A stretch of 64,000 nucleotides of DNA from assembly GCF_988242995.1 (NCBI RefSeq), contig NZ_OZ547043.1, one strand, 5' to 3'. The notes under the pieces were generated by a model, which did no database searches, was not told the origin of the DNA, and worked only from the letters and a program-made list of their open reading frames with translations. Shown here piece by piece: positions 10,737 to 48,717 of the stretch. The position numbers and the translations under genes were made by a program. The stretch's first letter is position 1. Each line of letters starts with the position of its first letter.

Positions 10737-10925
10737 CAGGGACATCCTTTTATCATCGGGAATACGAAAGAAAAGGGAGAATAAACGTCTTACTTATAGA
10801 ACAGTGAAGAATGCCACAATTTTACGCTTTGAAAATGATGACACTATCACAGTTGGCGCATTCATTAACGATAGGGTATAAGTAAAACAATAAGTTAACA
10901 CCGCTCACAGAGACGAGGTGGAGAA

Positions 10926-14016: not shown

Positions 14017-14735
14017 AAATGCGCCTGTAAGGCTCTGTTACCAGCCGCGCCCTAACAGGCGCATACGATCTGACATTTGCATTCAACTTCGTTACTTACG
14101 GCCCGTAAACGGGCTGCCCGGATATGGAATCGATAACTGCTCCCCCATTTTATCCTCTTCAAGCTGGTGCTTTATGTAGTCACGTATCTTCGCCGTGTTC
14201 TTACCCACCGTATCGACATAGTACCCTCGGCACCAGAACTCCCTGTTTCTGTATTTGAATTTCAAATCCCCAAACTGCTCGTAAAGCATCAGACTGCTTT
14301 TCCCTTTCAGATATCCCATAAAGCCGGATACGCTCATTTTGGGTGGGATTTCCACAAGCATATGGATATGATCTGCGCAGCACTCTGCTTCCAGAATCCG
14401 TACGCTTTTCCACTCACACAGCTTTCTCAAAATACTGCCTATCGCCCTACGCTTCTCTCCGTAAAACGCCAGTCTTCGGTATTTCGGCGCAAAAACTATG
14501 TGATATTTACAGTTCCAGCGGGTGTGCGCTAAGCTCTTTTCGTCCCCCATTGGGACCCCCTTTTGATTTCTTGTTTGACACTTGCAGTTGCCAGACCGCA
14601 AGGTGTTTTAACAAATCAAAAGGGGTTTTAATAACTGGCTCAAAGCTGAAAGCTTTCCGGAACCCCCAGCCTAGCTGGGGGTTTTCTGTGCACAATAAGA
14701 CGGCTCCTGATTCAGGAGCCGTTGATGTTTCTGGG
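14017..14735 (-). mobile_element. IS200-like insertion sequence (IS200/IS605 family); boundaries approximate
   Basis: About 0.7 kb unit carrying a single HUH Y1 transposase, subterminal hairpins at both ends and no terminal inverted repeats, lying between ytfK and ytfL. Confidence 0.8.
14092..14550 (-). CDS. tnpA: IS200-family Y1 (HUH) transposase TnpA
   Basis: 152-aa product MGDEKSLAHTRWNCKYHIVFAPKYRR...HIHMLVEIPPK...SPFTGRK with the HUH motif; RBS sequestered in an upstream hairpin. Confidence 0.92.
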   Translation of the reverse strand: MGDEKSLAHTRWNCKYHIVFAPKYRRLAFYGEKRRAIGSILRKLCEWKSVRILEAECCADHIHMLVEIPPKMSVSGFMGYLKGKSSLMLYEQFGDLKFKYRNREFWCRGYYVDTVGKNTAKIRDYIKHQLEEDKMGEQLSIPYPGSPFTGRK

Positions 14736-16081: not shown

Positions 16082-16257
16082 ATCTTATCCGACCTTTCAG
16101 GCCAGATCCTCGGAAGGGGAAGTTGATTAATTTGTGTGAAATACACATTGAAAGCCGATTCGAAGAAAGTGAACCGGCATTTTCAGTGGCTAGTATAGCG
16201 TAAGGTACTGTAAAGCCGCCAGAGGGTTAAAATTCAGACTGCTGATAAATGCAAAAC

Positions 16258-25789: not shown

Positions 25790-25890
25790 TCAATGCCTGA
25801 TGCCGACTTGTGGGCCGCCGGATAAGGCATTCACGCCGCATCCGGCGGTTGTGCGAGATGCCTGATGCGACGCAGTTGTGTCTTATCTGG
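25790..25890. repeat. REP elements
   Basis: GCCTGATGCCG, CGGATAAGGC and CGCCGCATCCGGCG palindromic units between ytfQ and ytfR. Confidence 0.8.
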
Positions 25891-25915
25891 CGCACGCTTT
25901 ACAACGGGGGAAACT

Positions 25916-42869: not shown

Positions 42870-43132
42870 ATAGATGCTACGAATATTATTGGATTCTCCT
42901 TATTATTTGCGGCGCTTTTTTCACTTACCGGAGGTTATATGGAACCTGATCCCACGCCTCTCCCTCGACGGAGATTAAAACTTTTCCGGTAAGCCCGTCT
43001 TTTCACGGCGTTACCGGATGCGTAAGGCCGTGACGTTTTAACGTCCCTGCTCAGCTTTATTACCTTCAGGTAAGGCTTCGCCACGCCTGAAGACATTTCT
43101 GTACTGTTTCAGACAGTGTGGAGGGACTCCTT
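42870..43132 (+). promoter_or_regulatory. mgtA leader (Mg2+/proline-responsive attenuator region)
   Basis: Long untranslated leader between the PhoP-dependent promoter and mgtA, containing the proline-rich leader ORF mgtL. Confidence 0.7.
42939..42992 (+). CDS. mgtL: mgtA leader peptide
   Basis: 17-codon [20 protein letters not shown] with a GGAGG ribosome-binding site inside the mgtA leader. Confidence 0.85.
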
Positions 43133-45829
43133 ATGTTTAAAGAAATTTTTACCCGGTTCATTCGCCATTTACCTTCCCGTCTGGTTCATCGCGATCCATT
43201 GCCTGGCGCGCAGCAGACAGTGAATACGGCGGTCCCGCCGTCCTTAAGTGCGCATTGCCTGAAAATGGCGGTGATGCCCGAAGAAGAATTGTGGAAAACG
43301 TTCGACACCCATCCGGAAGGATTAAATCAGGCGGAAGTGGAATCTGCCCGCGAACAACATGGTGAAAATAAATTACCCGCACAACAACCGTCGCCGTGGT
43401 GGGTTCATTTATGGGTCTGCTATCGCAACCCCTTTAATATTTTACTCACCATTCTCGGCGCTATTTCTTACGCCACGGAAGATTTATTTGCCGCGGGCGT
43501 TATCGCGCTAATGGTCGCTATTTCTACGTTGCTGAACTTTATTCAGGAAGCACGTTCCACTAAAGCGGCAGATGCCCTGAAAGCGATGGTCAGCAATACT
43601 GCGACGGTGCTGCGCGTAATTAACGACAAAGGCGAAAATGGCTGGCTGGAGATCCCGATCGACCAGCTGGTGCCCGGCGATATTATAAAACTGGCGGCAG
43701 GGGATATGATCCCGGCAGATTTACGTATCTTGCAGGCGCGGGATCTGTTCGTCGCTCAGGCGTCGTTAACCGGTGAGTCTCTGCCCGTGGAAAAAGCCGC
43801 TACTACTCGCCAGCCGGAGCACAGCAATCCGCTGGAGTGCGACACCCTGTGTTTTATGGGCACCACCGTGGTGAGCGGCACGGCACAAGCAATGGTGATT
43901 GCTACAGGAGCCAACACCTGGTTTGGTCAACTGGCGGGGCGTGTTAGTGAGCAGGAAAGCGAGCCGAATGCCTTTCAGCAAGGGATCAGCCGCGTCAGTA
44001 TGCTGCTGATTCGCTTTATGCTGGTGATGGCTCCGGTGGTGTTGCTTATCAACGGTTACACCAAAGGTGACTGGTGGGAAGCGGCACTGTTTGCGCTTTC
44101 GGTCGCGGTAGGCCTAACGCCGGAAATGTTGCCGATGATTGTTACCTCGACGCTGGCGCGCGGCGCAGTAAAGCTGTCGAAACAGAAAGTGATCGTCAAA
44201 CATCTGGATGCCATTCAGAACTTTGGCGCAATGGATATTCTGTGCACTGATAAAACCGGCACCCTGACACAGGATAAAATTGTGCTGGAGAATCATACCG
44301 ATATCTCCGGTAAAACCAGCGAACGCGTGCTGCATAGCGCGTGGTTGAACAGTCATTACCAGACCGGACTTAAAAACCTGCTTGATACCGCGGTGCTCGA
44401 AGGTACGGATGAAGAGTCAGCGCGCTCGCTGGCCAGCCGTTGGCAAAAAATTGATGAGATTCCGTTTGATTTCGAGCGTCGCCGGATGTCGGTGGTAGTG
44501 GCAGAAAATACCGAGCACCATCAGCTGGTTTGCAAAGGTGCATTGCAGGAAATCCTCAATGTGTGTTCGCAGGTGCGTCACAATGGCGAGATTGTGCCGC
44601 TCGATGACATCATGCTGCGTAAGATTAAGCGGGTTACTGATACGCTGAATCGTCAGGGGCTGCGCGTGGTTGCGGTGGCGACGAAATACCTGCCAGCGCG
44701 TGAAGGAGATTACCAGCGGGCGGATGAATCCGACCTGATCCTCGAAGGATATATTGCTTTCCTTGATCCGCCAAAAGAGACAACTGCTCCGGCACTGAAG
44801 GCATTAAAAGCGAGTGGCATTACCGTAAAAATCCTTACTGGCGACAGTGAGTTAGTTGCAGCGAAAGTGTGCCATGAAGTGGGGCTGGACGCGGGAGAGG
44901 TGGTCATTGGTAGTGATATTGAAACGCTATCTGACGACGAACTGGCAAATCTCGCACAGCGCACCACGCTGTTTGCTCGCCTGACGCCGATGCATAAAGA
45001 ACGCATTGTGACCTTACTGAAGCGCGAAGGGCATGTGGTTGGCTTTATGGGCGATGGTATAAATGATGCGCCCGCCTTACGTGCTGCGGATATCGGCATT
45101 TCTGTGGACGGCGCGGTAGATATTGCCCGTGAAGCGGCTGATATCATCCTGCTGGAAAAAAGCCTGATGGTGCTGGAAGAGGGGGTTATTGAGGGACGTC
45201 GCACTTTCGCCAACATGCTGAAATACATCAAAATGACGGCGAGTTCTAACTTCGGTAATGTGTTCAGCGTGCTGGTGGCGAGTGCTTTCTTGCCCTTCCT
45301 GCCGATGTTGCCGTTACACTTGCTTATTCAGAACCTGCTGTACGATGTGTCACAGGTGGCGATCCCGTTTGATAACGTCGACGACGAGCAAATTCAAAAG
45401 CCGCAGCGTTGGAATCCGGCGGATCTGGGGCGCTTTATGATCTTCTTCGGACCGATCAGCTCGATCTTCGATATTCTGACGTTTTGCCTGATGTGGTGGG
45501 TATTCCATGCCAACACGCCGGAAACGCAAACGCTGTTCCAGTCGGGCTGGTTTGTGGTGGGCTTACTGTCGCAAACGCTGATTGTGCATATGATCCGCAC
45601 CCGTCGTGTACCGTTTATTCAGAGCTGTGCATCGTGGCCGTTAATGATCATGACCGTGATCGTGATGATTGTCGGGATCGCATTGCCGTTTTCACCGCTG
45701 GCCAGTTATCTGCAGCTGCAGGCGCTGCCGTTAAGCTATTTCCCGTGGCTGGTTGCGATTCTGGCAGGGTATATGACGTTAACCCAGTTGGTGAAAGGAT
45801 TTTATAGCCGTCGTTACGGCTGGCAGTAA
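43133..45829 (+). CDS. mgtA: Mg2+-importing P-type ATPase
   Basis: 898-aa product MFKEIFTRFIRHLP... with P-type ATPase motifs DKTGTLT and GDGINDAPAL; internal start chosen within track ORF 43118-45829. Confidence 0.96.
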   Translation: MFKEIFTRFIRHLPSRLVHRDPLPGAQQTVNTAVPPSLSAHCLKMAVMPEEELWKTFDTHPEGLNQAEVESAREQHGENKLPAQQPSPWWVHLWVCYRNPFNILLTILGAISYATEDLFAAGVIALMVAISTLLNFIQEARSTKAADALKAMVSNTATVLRVINDKGENGWLEIPIDQLVPGDIIKLAAGDMIPADLRILQARDLFVAQASLTGESLPVEKAATTRQPEHSNPLECDTLCFMGTTVVSGTAQAMVIATGANTWFGQLAGRVSEQESEPNAFQQGISRVSMLLIRFMLVMAPVVLLINGYTKGDWWEAALFALSVAVGLTPEMLPMIVTSTLARGAVKLSKQKVIVKHLDAIQNFGAMDILCTDKTGTLTQDKIVLENHTDISGKTSERVLHSAWLNSHYQTGLKNLLDTAVLEGTDEESARSLASRWQKIDEIPFDFERRRMSVVVAENTEHHQLVCKGALQEILNVCSQVRHNGEIVPLDDIMLRKIKRVTDTLNRQGLRVVAVATKYLPAREGDYQRADESDLILEGYIAFLDPPKETTAPALKALKASGITVKILTGDSELVAAKVCHEVGLDAGEVVIGSDIETLSDDELANLAQRTTLFARLTPMHKERIVTLLKREGHVVGFMGDGINDAPALRAADIGISVDGAVDIAREAADIILLEKSLMVLEEGVIEGRRTFANMLKYIKMTASSNFGNVFSVLVASAFLPFLPMLPLHLLIQNLLYDVSQVAIPFDNVDDEQIQKPQRWNPADLGRFMIFFGPISSIFDILTFCLMWWVFHANTPETQTLFQSGWFVVGLLSQTLIVHMIRTRRVPFIQSCASWPLMIMTVIVMIVGIALPFSPLASYLQLQALPLSYFPWLVAILAGYMTLTQLVKGFYSRRYGWQ

Positions 45830-46493: not shown

Positions 46494-46955
46494 TTAATTG
46501 GCCAGCACCACATTATGGGAAAACTCTTTTTCACAGTATTTGCATTTGAGCGCGATGTCATTGGCGCGTTTTCGCACGGCAAAGCTGGAAGAAACCGGTT
46601 CGGCATGGCTGATACAGTTGCTGTTCGGGCAGACCAGCACATTGTCGATGCGCTCCGGCAGACTGGGGCGCGATTTGCCAACCACTTCATAGTTGTCGAT
46701 ACGGTTAACCGTGGCTTGCGGTGCATACAATGCCAGTTGGTCTACTTGATCTTCACTCAAAAAGGTATTTTCGATTTTGATCAGATCTTTGCGGCCCATC
46801 TCGCCAGAAGGCAGGTTCAGACCAATGGTGATGCGCTGATCCGTTTCGGTCAGCTTGAACAGACTCAATAGTTTAAAACCGATCTGGGCGGGGATATGGT
46901 CAATTACCGTGCCGCGTTTAATAGCTTCAACCTGCAATTTATTATCGTGTGTCAT
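46494..46955 (-). CDS. pyrI: Aspartate carbamoyltransferase regulatory subunit
   Basis: 153-aa [29 protein letters not shown]... with a C-terminal zinc domain (CPNSNC...CKYC). Confidence 0.97.
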
Positions 46956-46967
46956 CTCTATTTCCCC

Positions 46968-47903
46968 TTACAGTACCAGATCGCGATTCAGAACCAGTGC
47001 CAGTAACGCCTGGCGAGCGAAAATCCCGTTGCCTGCCTGCTGGAAGTACCAGGCGTGCGGCGTTTTATCAACATCGGTGGCAATCTCATCAACACGCGGC
47101 AGCGGATGCAGCACTTTCATATTGGCTTTGGCGTTGTGGAGATCGCTGGCGCGAAGAACAAACTGCGCTTTCACGTTGGCGTACTCGGACGGGTCCAGAC
47201 GCTCTTTTTGCACGCGAGTCATGTACAGGATGTCTACTTCCGCCATCACTTCTTCAATAGAGCTGTGCAGACTCCAGGCGATCCCTTTTTCATCGAGCAT
47301 ATCAAGGATGTATTGCGGCATTGCCAGCGCGTCCGGCGCGATGAAGTAAAAACGGTTGCCGTCGAACTTCGCTAACGCCTGAGTCAGGGAGTGAACGGTG
47401 CGGCCATATTTCAGGTCACCAACCATTGCGACGTGGAGATTGTCCAGACGCCCCTGGGTTTCCTGAATGGTGAATAAGTCCAGCAAGGTTTGCGTCGGAT
47501 GTTGGTTGGAGCCATCACCGGCATTCAGTACCGGTACATTGCCGGAAAATTCGGTGGCCAGGCGCGCCGCACCTTCCTGCGGATGACGCATCACTATCGC
47601 ATCGACGTAAGTGCTGATAACCGAAATGGTATCGGCCAGCGTTTCGCCCTTTTTACCCAGTGATGTATTGGCGCTGTCGGAGAAGCCCACCACGCTGGCA
47701 CCCAGGCGGTGCATGGAAGTTTCGAAAGAGAGGCGGGTACGGGTAGAGGCTTCGAAGAAACAACTGGCAATGACTTTGTGCTTCAACAGCTCTGGTTGCG
47801 GGTTTGCTTTCAGTTTCGCCGCTGTCGCCAGCACCAGATTAAGGTCATCGCGACTAAGGTCGTTTATGGAAATGATATGTTTCTGATATAGCGGATTAGC
47901 CAT
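46968..47903 (-). CDS. pyrB: Aspartate carbamoyltransferase catalytic subunit
   Basis: 311-aa [28 protein letters not shown]... with the STRTR motif. Confidence 0.97.
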
Positions 47904-47906
47904 CTT

Positions 47907-48041
47907 TTATCTCCTGACGCCTGGGCAAAAAAAAGCCCCTCGATTGAGGGGCTGGGAATGGGTGATCAACGGGAAGAAAAACGGCAGGCCAGCGTCTTTT
48001 TTCAGACGCGGTAAGACAAAATGTCGAACACACTGAACCAT
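47907..48041 (-). CDS. pyrL: pyrBI operon leader peptide
   Basis: 44-codon ORF MVQCVRHFVLPRLKKDAGLPFFFPLITHSQPLNRGAFFCPGVRR ending 3 nt before pyrB. Confidence 0.9.
   Translation of the reverse strand: MVQCVRHFVLPRLKKDAGLPFFFPLITHSQPLNRGAFFCPGVRR
47927..47955 (-). terminator. pyrBI attenuator (Rho-independent terminator inside pyrL)
   Basis: Minus-strand stem-loop gcccctc/gaggggc followed by a run of eight U, about 25 nt upstream of pyrB. Confidence 0.9.
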
Positions 48042-48321
48042 ACATCCTCCCGGCAAATTGTCCGGCATTATACTCATCGTCAGAAGCGGTGCAAGCATTT
48101 GATGCAATATTTTGTCAGCGCAAACGGTTTATTTGAATTAAAAGTCAAAATACATGCATATTTATTTGTTGTGATTCTGAAGGGGAACTGTCGTTCGGTA
48201 TCAATAATTGCAGACATTTCCTGCTTTTTTCTTTTTCACTTTCACGCAATTAGAAATGCATTTTATTCCATTCATCCGACTTATAGGGCGGAGTGTGAAA
48301 ACGAACGGCTAACACTATTGC

Positions 48322-48717
48322 TTATAGCTCAGGGATGCGCGCTATCACTTTAATTTCAAAATCAAAGCCTGCCAGCCATGTAACGCCCACCGCCGTCCAG
48401 GTTGGATAAGGTGGGGCGCTAAATATTTCATTTTTCACCGTCATGATGTCTTCAAATTGTTTTTCTGGATCGGTATGAAAGCTCGTAACATCAATGATAT
48501 CGTCAAAAGTGCATCCCGCGGCAGCCAGGGTCGCATGCAAATTATCAAATGCCAGTCTGACTTGTTGCTGAAAATCGGGTTCTGGTGTTCCGTCCTCTCG
48601 ACTTCCTACTTGCCCGGAAACAAACAGCAAATCGCCGGAACGAATAGCCGCAGAATAACGATGCTCAGCATACAGTGAATGTCGGCCAGCAGGGAAAACA
48701 GGAGTTCTTTCTACCAT
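48322..48717 (-). CDS. yjgH: RidA/YjgF-family protein
   Basis: 131-aa product MVERTPVFPAGRHSLYAEHRYSAAIRSGDLLFVSGQVG...; internal start chosen within track ORF 48322-48801. Confidence 0.88.
   Translation of the reverse strand: MVERTPVFPAGRHSLYAEHRYSAAIRSGDLLFVSGQVGSREDGTPEPDFQQQVRLAFDNLHATLAAAGCTFDDIIDVTSFHTDPEKQFEDIMTVKNEIFSAPPYPTWTAVGVTWLAGFDFEIKVIARIPEL

Follow-up and report, generated by a model that had tools for sequence, protein, structure and literature searches.

A region on the minus strand of the window, the whole 64,000-nucleotide stretch analysed here (contig NZ_OZ547043.1 of assembly GCF_988242995.1), is very probably the leader of the Escherichia coli pyrBI operon, comprising the promoter, the leader peptide gene pyrL and a UTP-sensitive attenuator that works by coupling transcription to translation. 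We put the probability of this identification, which was reached by sequence comparison, at about 0.97, and nothing in the sequence contradicts the attenuator model. The element is already known, and it is biologically nothing new for E. coli, because it is identical to the K-12 locus that has been studied since the early 1980s. Its interest is that of a positive control, a classical regulatory element having been recognised from raw sequence alone, with correct coordinates and mechanism. That sequence-only reading had described a 44-codon pyrL ORF running through a GC-rich hairpin, with a U8 tract about 25 nt before pyrB, as an intact coupled transcription-translation attenuator.

Leader gene, terminator and promoter

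The pyrL ORF occupies 47907-48041 on the minus strand, exactly as had been claimed, with 44 sense codons and the stop making up 135 nt. Its ATG at 48041 and its TAA at 47909-47907 were read from the minus-strand sequence and the program's ORF list. The list itself opens the frame earlier, at a TTG at 48107 (47907..48107, 66 aa); we took the product to be the 44-aa peptide MVQCVRHFVLPRLKKDAGLPFFFPLITHSQPLNRGAFFCPGVRR rather than this longer form because the in-frame ATG has a Shine-Dalgarno sequence, GGAGG (48046..48050, minus strand), 4-5 nt on its 5′ side. PyrL matched the Pfam family PF08052 (PyrBI_leader) with 117.1 bits (cutoff 25) over positions 1-44 of 44, and the NCBIfam equivalog NF007587 with 120.1 bits (cutoff 61), again over its full length, and the same gene is annotated as pyrL in K-12 and O157:H7. 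The stop, at 47907, falls 3 nt short of the pyrB ATG at 47903.

The regulated gene, pyrB (46968..47903, minus strand), encodes the catalytic chain of aspartate carbamoyltransferase and matched TIGR00670 with 419.7 bits as well as Pfam OTCace_N and OTCace. The operon's second gene, pyrI (46494..46955, minus strand), encodes the regulatory chain and matched TIGR00240 with 243.5 bits as well as Pfam PyrI and PyrI_C. The full-length match of PyrL to its family, its place directly upstream of pyrB and pyrI on the same strand, and the identity of the DNA to that of K-12 all uphold the reading of the region as a coupled attenuator.

A second open frame of 49 codons (47896-48045, minus strand; MYGSVCSTFCL...) runs into pyrB. 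Its ATG precedes that of pyrL by 4 nt and abuts GGAGG without a spacer, so that translation of this frame seems unlikely. The frame is likewise open in several Citrobacter leaders.

The attenuator hairpin, an intrinsic terminator with the form AGCCCCUC-AAUC-GAGGGGCU, was located at 47934..47953 (minus strand) both by folding and by a terminator scan. Its stem has eight pairs, six of them G-C, and the pyrL frame crosses both arms and the U8 tract, so that the feature expected of the class, a frame that reaches or crosses the hairpin, is present. Folding of the minus-strand transcript gave a stable hairpin followed by a U-run, with an energy of -15.9 kcal/mol compared with -6.9 +/- 2.0 kcal/mol for 200 dinucleotide shuffles (z -4.5), none of which was as stable. 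The terminator scan flagged the same hairpin independently. As that pattern scan expects one terminator-like site per 800 nt by chance, the case for a terminator rests not on it alone but on the z-score of the fold, the family matches and conservation. The terminator U8 tract (47927..47934, minus strand) is exactly eight bases long, its first T also pairing with A47953, and its end lies 23 nt from the pyrB ATG, close to the 25 nt or so that had been estimated. A weak terminator-like site was also seen at 48210-48224 (minus strand), about 100 nt downstream of yjgH; it has a 5-bp stem and a poor T tail, and falls within the chance expectation.

Of the structures in the leader, only the terminator was significant: the fold of the whole leader gave a z-score of -1.67 against shuffles. 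No antiterminator appeared in the minimum free energy (MFE) or centroid folds of the whole leader, both of which kept the terminator and contained no helix competing for its 5′ arm. The two folds also contained an upstream hairpin within pyrL, GCGUCU-GAAAAA-AGACGC (47992..48009, minus strand). RNAalifold recovered its inner five pairs over 28 enteric leaders, with compensatory U-A to C-G changes at one pair in three sequences. This hairpin has historically been tied to pausing, in which it may take part. In recent work in vitro, however, pausing in pyrL was found to be independent of NusA and of a hairpin, with the pause mapping some 24 nt further upstream than the earlier one (PMC9291695).

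A U-rich tract, UUUUUCUU, lies at 47974..47981 (minus strand), about 21-28 nt upstream of the terminator hairpin, and is the proposed UTP-sensitive pause region; a tract of this kind in this position is a feature of the class. Among 91 Enterobacterales leaders the T fraction was 0.65 and 0.53 at -30..-21 from the hairpin, compared with 0.07-0.15 at -50..-36. The segment CGTTTTTCTTCCCGT is read as PFFFP in Escherichia, as RFSSR in Enterobacter sp. Ag1 and as FSFRC elsewhere. Judged from these alignments, the U-rich tract is conserved as nucleotides and not as codons.

The pyrBI promoter has a perfect -10 hexamer, TATAAT (48067..48072, minus strand), and, across a 16-nt spacer, a weak -35 hexamer, TTGCAC (48089..48094, minus strand), which agrees with the consensus at three of six positions. 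Our consensus promoter scan, which demands at least four of six matches in each hexamer, did not report this promoter; given the perfect -10 box, we did not count that negative result against a promoter that is known. The initially transcribed region, AATTTG (48054..48059, minus strand), starts at A48059, 8 nt past the -10 box, and lies just outside the interval 47907-48041 covered by the sequence-only reading. The combination of TATAAT and AATTTG that characterises promoters of the pyrBI class is therefore present, and is identical to that of K-12. The AATTTG motif has been described as the site of UTP-sensitive reiterative transcription at pyrBI (PMC7039003, PMC6524683), which contributes about 7-fold control (PMC6524683; PMC7039003), and a start A at 8 nt from the -10 box is the spacing said to favour slippage (PMC6245113).

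Conservation in E. coli and across Enterobacterales

The window is identical to K-12 MG1655 (b4246) from 48089 to beyond the start of pyrB, an interval that includes the -10 box, pyrL, the hairpin and U8. The alignment showed no differences between the -10 box and pyrB, and the leader is intact, as had been stated. The nearest difference is at 48090, position 5 of the -35 hexamer, with A here and G in K-12 (TTGCAC vs TTGCGC); neither base fits the -35 consensus, and the A allele is common to O157:H7 and many other strains. About 13 further substitutions are found upstream, in the yjgH-pyrL spacer. A 251-nt query over the region matched in 5,424 of 5,426 complete E. coli genomes, with at least 99% identity in 4,901 of the 5,424, and both pyrL and pyrB were annotated in every record among the matches listed. 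The presence and stability of the elements, their identity to K-12 and their conservation are thus direct observations.

Three of the 5,426 matching places of the pyrL-pyrB query were on records labelled as plasmids, and two genomes gave no match. In E. coli SC434 (locus L004, about 470-473) one of the three nucleotides that separate the pyrL stop from the ATG of pyrB is deleted (AAAAG to AAAA).

The gene order mgtA, ridA, pyrI, pyrB, pyrL, yjgH, bdcA, bdcR, tabA is that of K-12, and the order pyrL-pyrB-pyrI is the same in the annotations of K-12 and O157:H7. About 5 kb from pyrL is another leader-controlled gene, mgtA (43118-45829), which has a Magnesium-II riboswitch (Rfam, 125.8 bits) directly upstream at 42924-43039 on the plus strand. 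Further Rfam matches above threshold in the window were ES239, STnc490, STnc450, three copies of naRNA4 (REP-derived) and Ysr276, with coordinates 10737-10859, 14560-14683, 16143-16200, 25816-25892, 59651-59822 and 60656-60850.

A different allele of the DNA upstream of the -10 box, only about 60% similar, is carried by roughly 5-10% of complete E. coli genomes. Strains with this allele have an 'arginine repressor' paralogue (WP_000666045.1) as the upstream neighbour and not yjgH; examples are E. coli strain 9 (L003 1-300) and SC434 (L004 1-300), to be compared with 48073-48130 of the window. The two alleles part exactly at the -10 box, downstream of which the leader does not differ.

A candidate PurR half-operator, AACCGTTTGC, is located at 48120..48129 (minus strand), 57 nt upstream of the -10 box and outside the attenuator proper. 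The motif is kept even in the divergent upstream allele of E. coli. It was found in 23 of 63 enteric loci searched, in 18 of them at a fixed distance of 56-57 nt from TATAAT, and the genera with this spacing are Citrobacter, Salmonella, Enterobacter, Kosakonia and Phytobacter. In PMC3159470 pyrLBI has a PurR ChIP peak and is repressed in a PurR-dependent manner, with no motif given for that locus; the sequence here looks like one half of a PurR operator (compare ACGAAAACGTTTGCGC in that paper's table). By this resemblance and its conserved position, it may be the PurR site implied by the ChIP data.

For an independent comparison across species we used a degenerate pattern for the N-terminus of PyrB only (NPLY.KHIISI), with one genome per species, which gave 120 loci; with the scan anchored in this way, the leader played no part in the choice of loci. 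Within 140 nt of pyrB, 103 of the 115 loci having at least 200 nt upstream carried a hairpin with an energy of -8 kcal/mol or lower and, after it, a run of six or more T. A MAFFT alignment of 80 terminator segments placed no gaps in the variable loop and left the 5′ arms out of register, so pairs were counted per sequence instead, anchored on the T-run. All 78 unique Enterobacterales versions had a perfect stem of 6-8 bp abutting the T-run, with the core GCCCCU/AGGGGC. The inner pair showed compensatory changes (C-G, U-A, A-U, G-C), as other pairs occasionally did. The T-run was T8 in 61 of these versions, T9 in 15 and T7 in two, and the distance from the hairpin and U8 to pyrB was held at 18-60 nt across genera with unrelated upstream genes. 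In several Citrobacter leaders a change from T8 to T9 accompanies the frame difference between the two pyrL classes described next.

Of 91 distinct Enterobacterales leaders with a terminator, 65 had the arrangement TATAAT-N5-9-AATTTG; eight further loci of the order had no terminator. In 86 of the 91, an ORF with a Shine-Dalgarno match ahead of it either reached the hairpin or stopped at most 12 nt short of it. The stop lay beyond the hairpin in 35 of these, inside it in 47 and up to 12 nt before it in four. Two classes of pyrL can be distinguished on this basis, the E. coli type, with 44-48 codons and a stop beyond the hairpin (35 leaders), and the Salmonella type, with 33-34 codons and a stop in the loop or 3′ arm (47 leaders). 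As far as these sequences go, reading through the hairpin is a trait of particular lineages, whereas reaching the hairpin is the general rule.

A similar leader layout was seen in Chromobacteriaceae (Betaproteobacteria), at loci found only through their E. coli-like PyrB N-terminus: L014 (1860-2068, Vogesella aquatica), L005, L012, L102, L049, L100, L061, L124, L044 and L091. In these the -10 box (TATAAT, TAGAAT or TACAAT) is followed after 7 nt by GTTTTG, and a leader ORF of roughly 38 codons ends with UGA in the 5′ arm or loop of a hairpin AGCUCCUGA...UCAGGGGCU, which is followed by U8-9 and lies 27-40 nt before pyrB in most cases. In L014 the hairpin is not the terminator of the upstream gene, since the nearest such gene ends about 400 nt before it. 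A search of full-text literature returned no paper describing a pyrBI-like leader in Chromobacteriaceae.

Mechanism and rival explanations

We infer the UTP response, the polymerase pausing and the role of the ribosome at this locus from its identity to the studied K-12 locus. Transcription would begin at A48059. An unimpeded polymerase would transcribe pyrL, the hairpin (47953-47934) and U8 would form, and transcription would terminate 23 nt before pyrB; the attenuated transcript, from 48059 to about 47927, would be a leader RNA of about 133 nt. A shortage of UTP would make the polymerase dwell in the U-rich tract at 47981-47974, giving the ribosome that began at the pyrL ATG (48041) time to catch up. 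As the pyrL frame crosses the hairpin, this ribosome would occupy the 5′ arm as the arm emerges, and with the hairpin blocked the polymerase would continue into pyrB and pyrI, with no antiterminator structure taking part. A second and independent sensor of UTP would act at initiation, where high UTP would favour slippage of AAUUU (at 48059-48054) to AAUUUUn, the slipped transcripts being released.

U8 is the termination signal, and the UTP sensor proposed from the work of the Turnbough laboratory is not U8 itself but the slow transcription of the U-rich tract, with pausing of polymerase at 47981-47974. The coupled attenuator described by the sequence-only reading is refined in two respects, in that UTP would be sensed at this tract instead of at U8, and in that a second UTP-sensitive step, already known at pyrBI, would act at AATTTG (48059-48054).

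PMC4824070 and PMC5021804, both citing Roland, Liu & Turnbough 1988, place a terminator within the leader gene of 135 bp and have it suppressed by a ribosome following close behind. According to PMC4824070, the pyrL terminator is not suppressed at normal UTP. According to PMC5021804, tight coupling of ribosome and polymerase across pyrL is needed to stop the terminator forming, and the pyrL hairpin alone cut expression of a downstream reporter about 18-fold.

Three other explanations of the region were weighed against the UTP-sensitive attenuator. An attenuator of the trp/his/phe type would sense phenylalanine, UUU UUC UUC (47980-47972) stalling the ribosome when Phe-tRNA is scarce and so allowing an antiterminator to form. 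PyrL does contain FFF followed by two more Phe residues, and a weak Trp_leader match covers the terminator; this match, however, reached 19.7 bits where the gathering score is 41. Rfam, searched at gathering and permissive thresholds, returned no pyrBI-leader family, and its matches to the region, those to leaders included, were all sub-threshold and lay on the generic terminator hairpin only. As neither the MFE nor the centroid fold contained a structure competing with the terminator, a stalled ribosome would increase termination and not relieve it. The U-tract is, moreover, kept as nucleotides and read in other frames in other genera, and the regulated genes make pyrimidines, not phenylalanine. 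The features of the amino-acid attenuator class (an antiterminator, a curated leader RNA match and a codon-conserved run) were all absent at pyrL, and phenylalanine sensing is almost certainly not what the leader does. We likewise give next to no credence to the view that the hairpin and U8 are the terminator of yjgH (48322-48717, as delimited by the K-12 annotation), the small ORF being there by chance. That gene does lie upstream on the same strand, and chance alone would give about one terminator-like site per 800 nt, but about 370 nt separate the hairpin from the end of yjgH, and the -10 box and start region of pyrBI come before the hairpin. The leader is also unchanged in those E. coli strains in which the arginine-repressor paralogue is the upstream neighbour, and the hairpin and U8 keep their distance from pyrB in genera whose upstream genes are unrelated. 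A chance ORF would, in addition, hardly fit the curated PyrL models at an E value of about 1e-34.

An independent function for the PyrL peptide beyond its being translated, as a small protein or a nascent-chain effector, is highly improbable. In its favour, the N-terminal 25 residues (MVQCVRH.VLPRLK.DAGLPFFFPL) are well conserved in Escherichia, Citrobacter, Salmonella, Enterobacter, Kluyvera and Kosakonia. The mean entropy at codon positions 1, 2 and 3 was, however, 0.53, 0.64 and 0.75, only slightly higher at the third position, in a test that is blurred by indels in some genera; these nearly equal values lean towards a constraint on nucleotides (the hairpin, the U-tract and the Shine-Dalgarno sequence) rather than on protein. 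The C-terminal third is wholly different between the forms of 33-34 and 44-48 aa, and in more distant Enterobacterales the peptides are unrelated while the RNA layout is kept.

In the minimum-energy fold of the leader, the region where the ribosome binds pyrL (about 48053-48046, CCGGGAGG) is also paired with UUCUUCCC, the U/C-rich pause tract (about 47978-47971). Both segments are conserved for other reasons. Were this pairing to form after passage of the polymerase and exclude later ribosomes, the decision would hang on one pioneer ribosome. We regard such an undescribed extra layer, whether through this pairing or through a role of its own for the conserved N-terminal part of PyrL, as very unlikely; what speaks for it is the non-significant fold of the whole leader and conservation that known functions already explain.

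Comparison with known systems

The closest known system is the pyrL attenuator of E. coli K-12, which is the same base for base from the -10 box to the start of pyrB and has the same neighbours, differing in the -35 hexamer (A/G at 48090) and in the upstream spacer. Like pyrBI, the attenuators of the trp, his, leu, thr and phe operons combine a short leader ORF with a pause and with an intrinsic terminator ahead of the first structural gene, and depend on the coupling of transcription to translation. They sense charged tRNA through regulatory codons and switch between antiterminator and terminator, whereas at pyrBI the ribosome blocks the terminator and UTP acts on the polymerase. The attenuator of rph-pyrE in E. 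coli shares the principle of pyrBI, UTP-sensitive coupling of ribosome and polymerase suppressing an intrinsic terminator without an antiterminator. Its 'leader' is a full-length gene, rph, in contrast to the dedicated 44-codon ORF of pyrBI. In Bacillus, PyrR likewise brings about pyrimidine-responsive transcription attenuation before pyr genes, but that system needs a protein, PyrR with UMP or UTP, to bind an anti-antiterminator RNA, and the Rfam search gave no match to the PyrR site in the window.

The Salmonella-type leader, with a pyrL of 33-34 codons (as in loci L093 and L123), shares the promoter, the start motif, the N-terminal peptide and the U-rich tract, and has the same hairpin core, GCCCCUC/GAGGGGC, with U8 22 nt before pyrB. 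It differs in that its stop lies in the hairpin loop or 3′ arm, compared with 25 nt beyond the hairpin here, and it is the commoner form in Enterobacterales (47 vs 35 distinct leaders). The comparison thus separates what is universal in Enterobacterales, namely the core of the hairpin, U8-9, a start at AATTTG, a tract rich in T some 21-30 nt upstream of the hairpin and a leader ORF extending as far as the hairpin, from the part of the design that is specific to lineages, which is whether that ORF stops inside the hairpin or beyond it.
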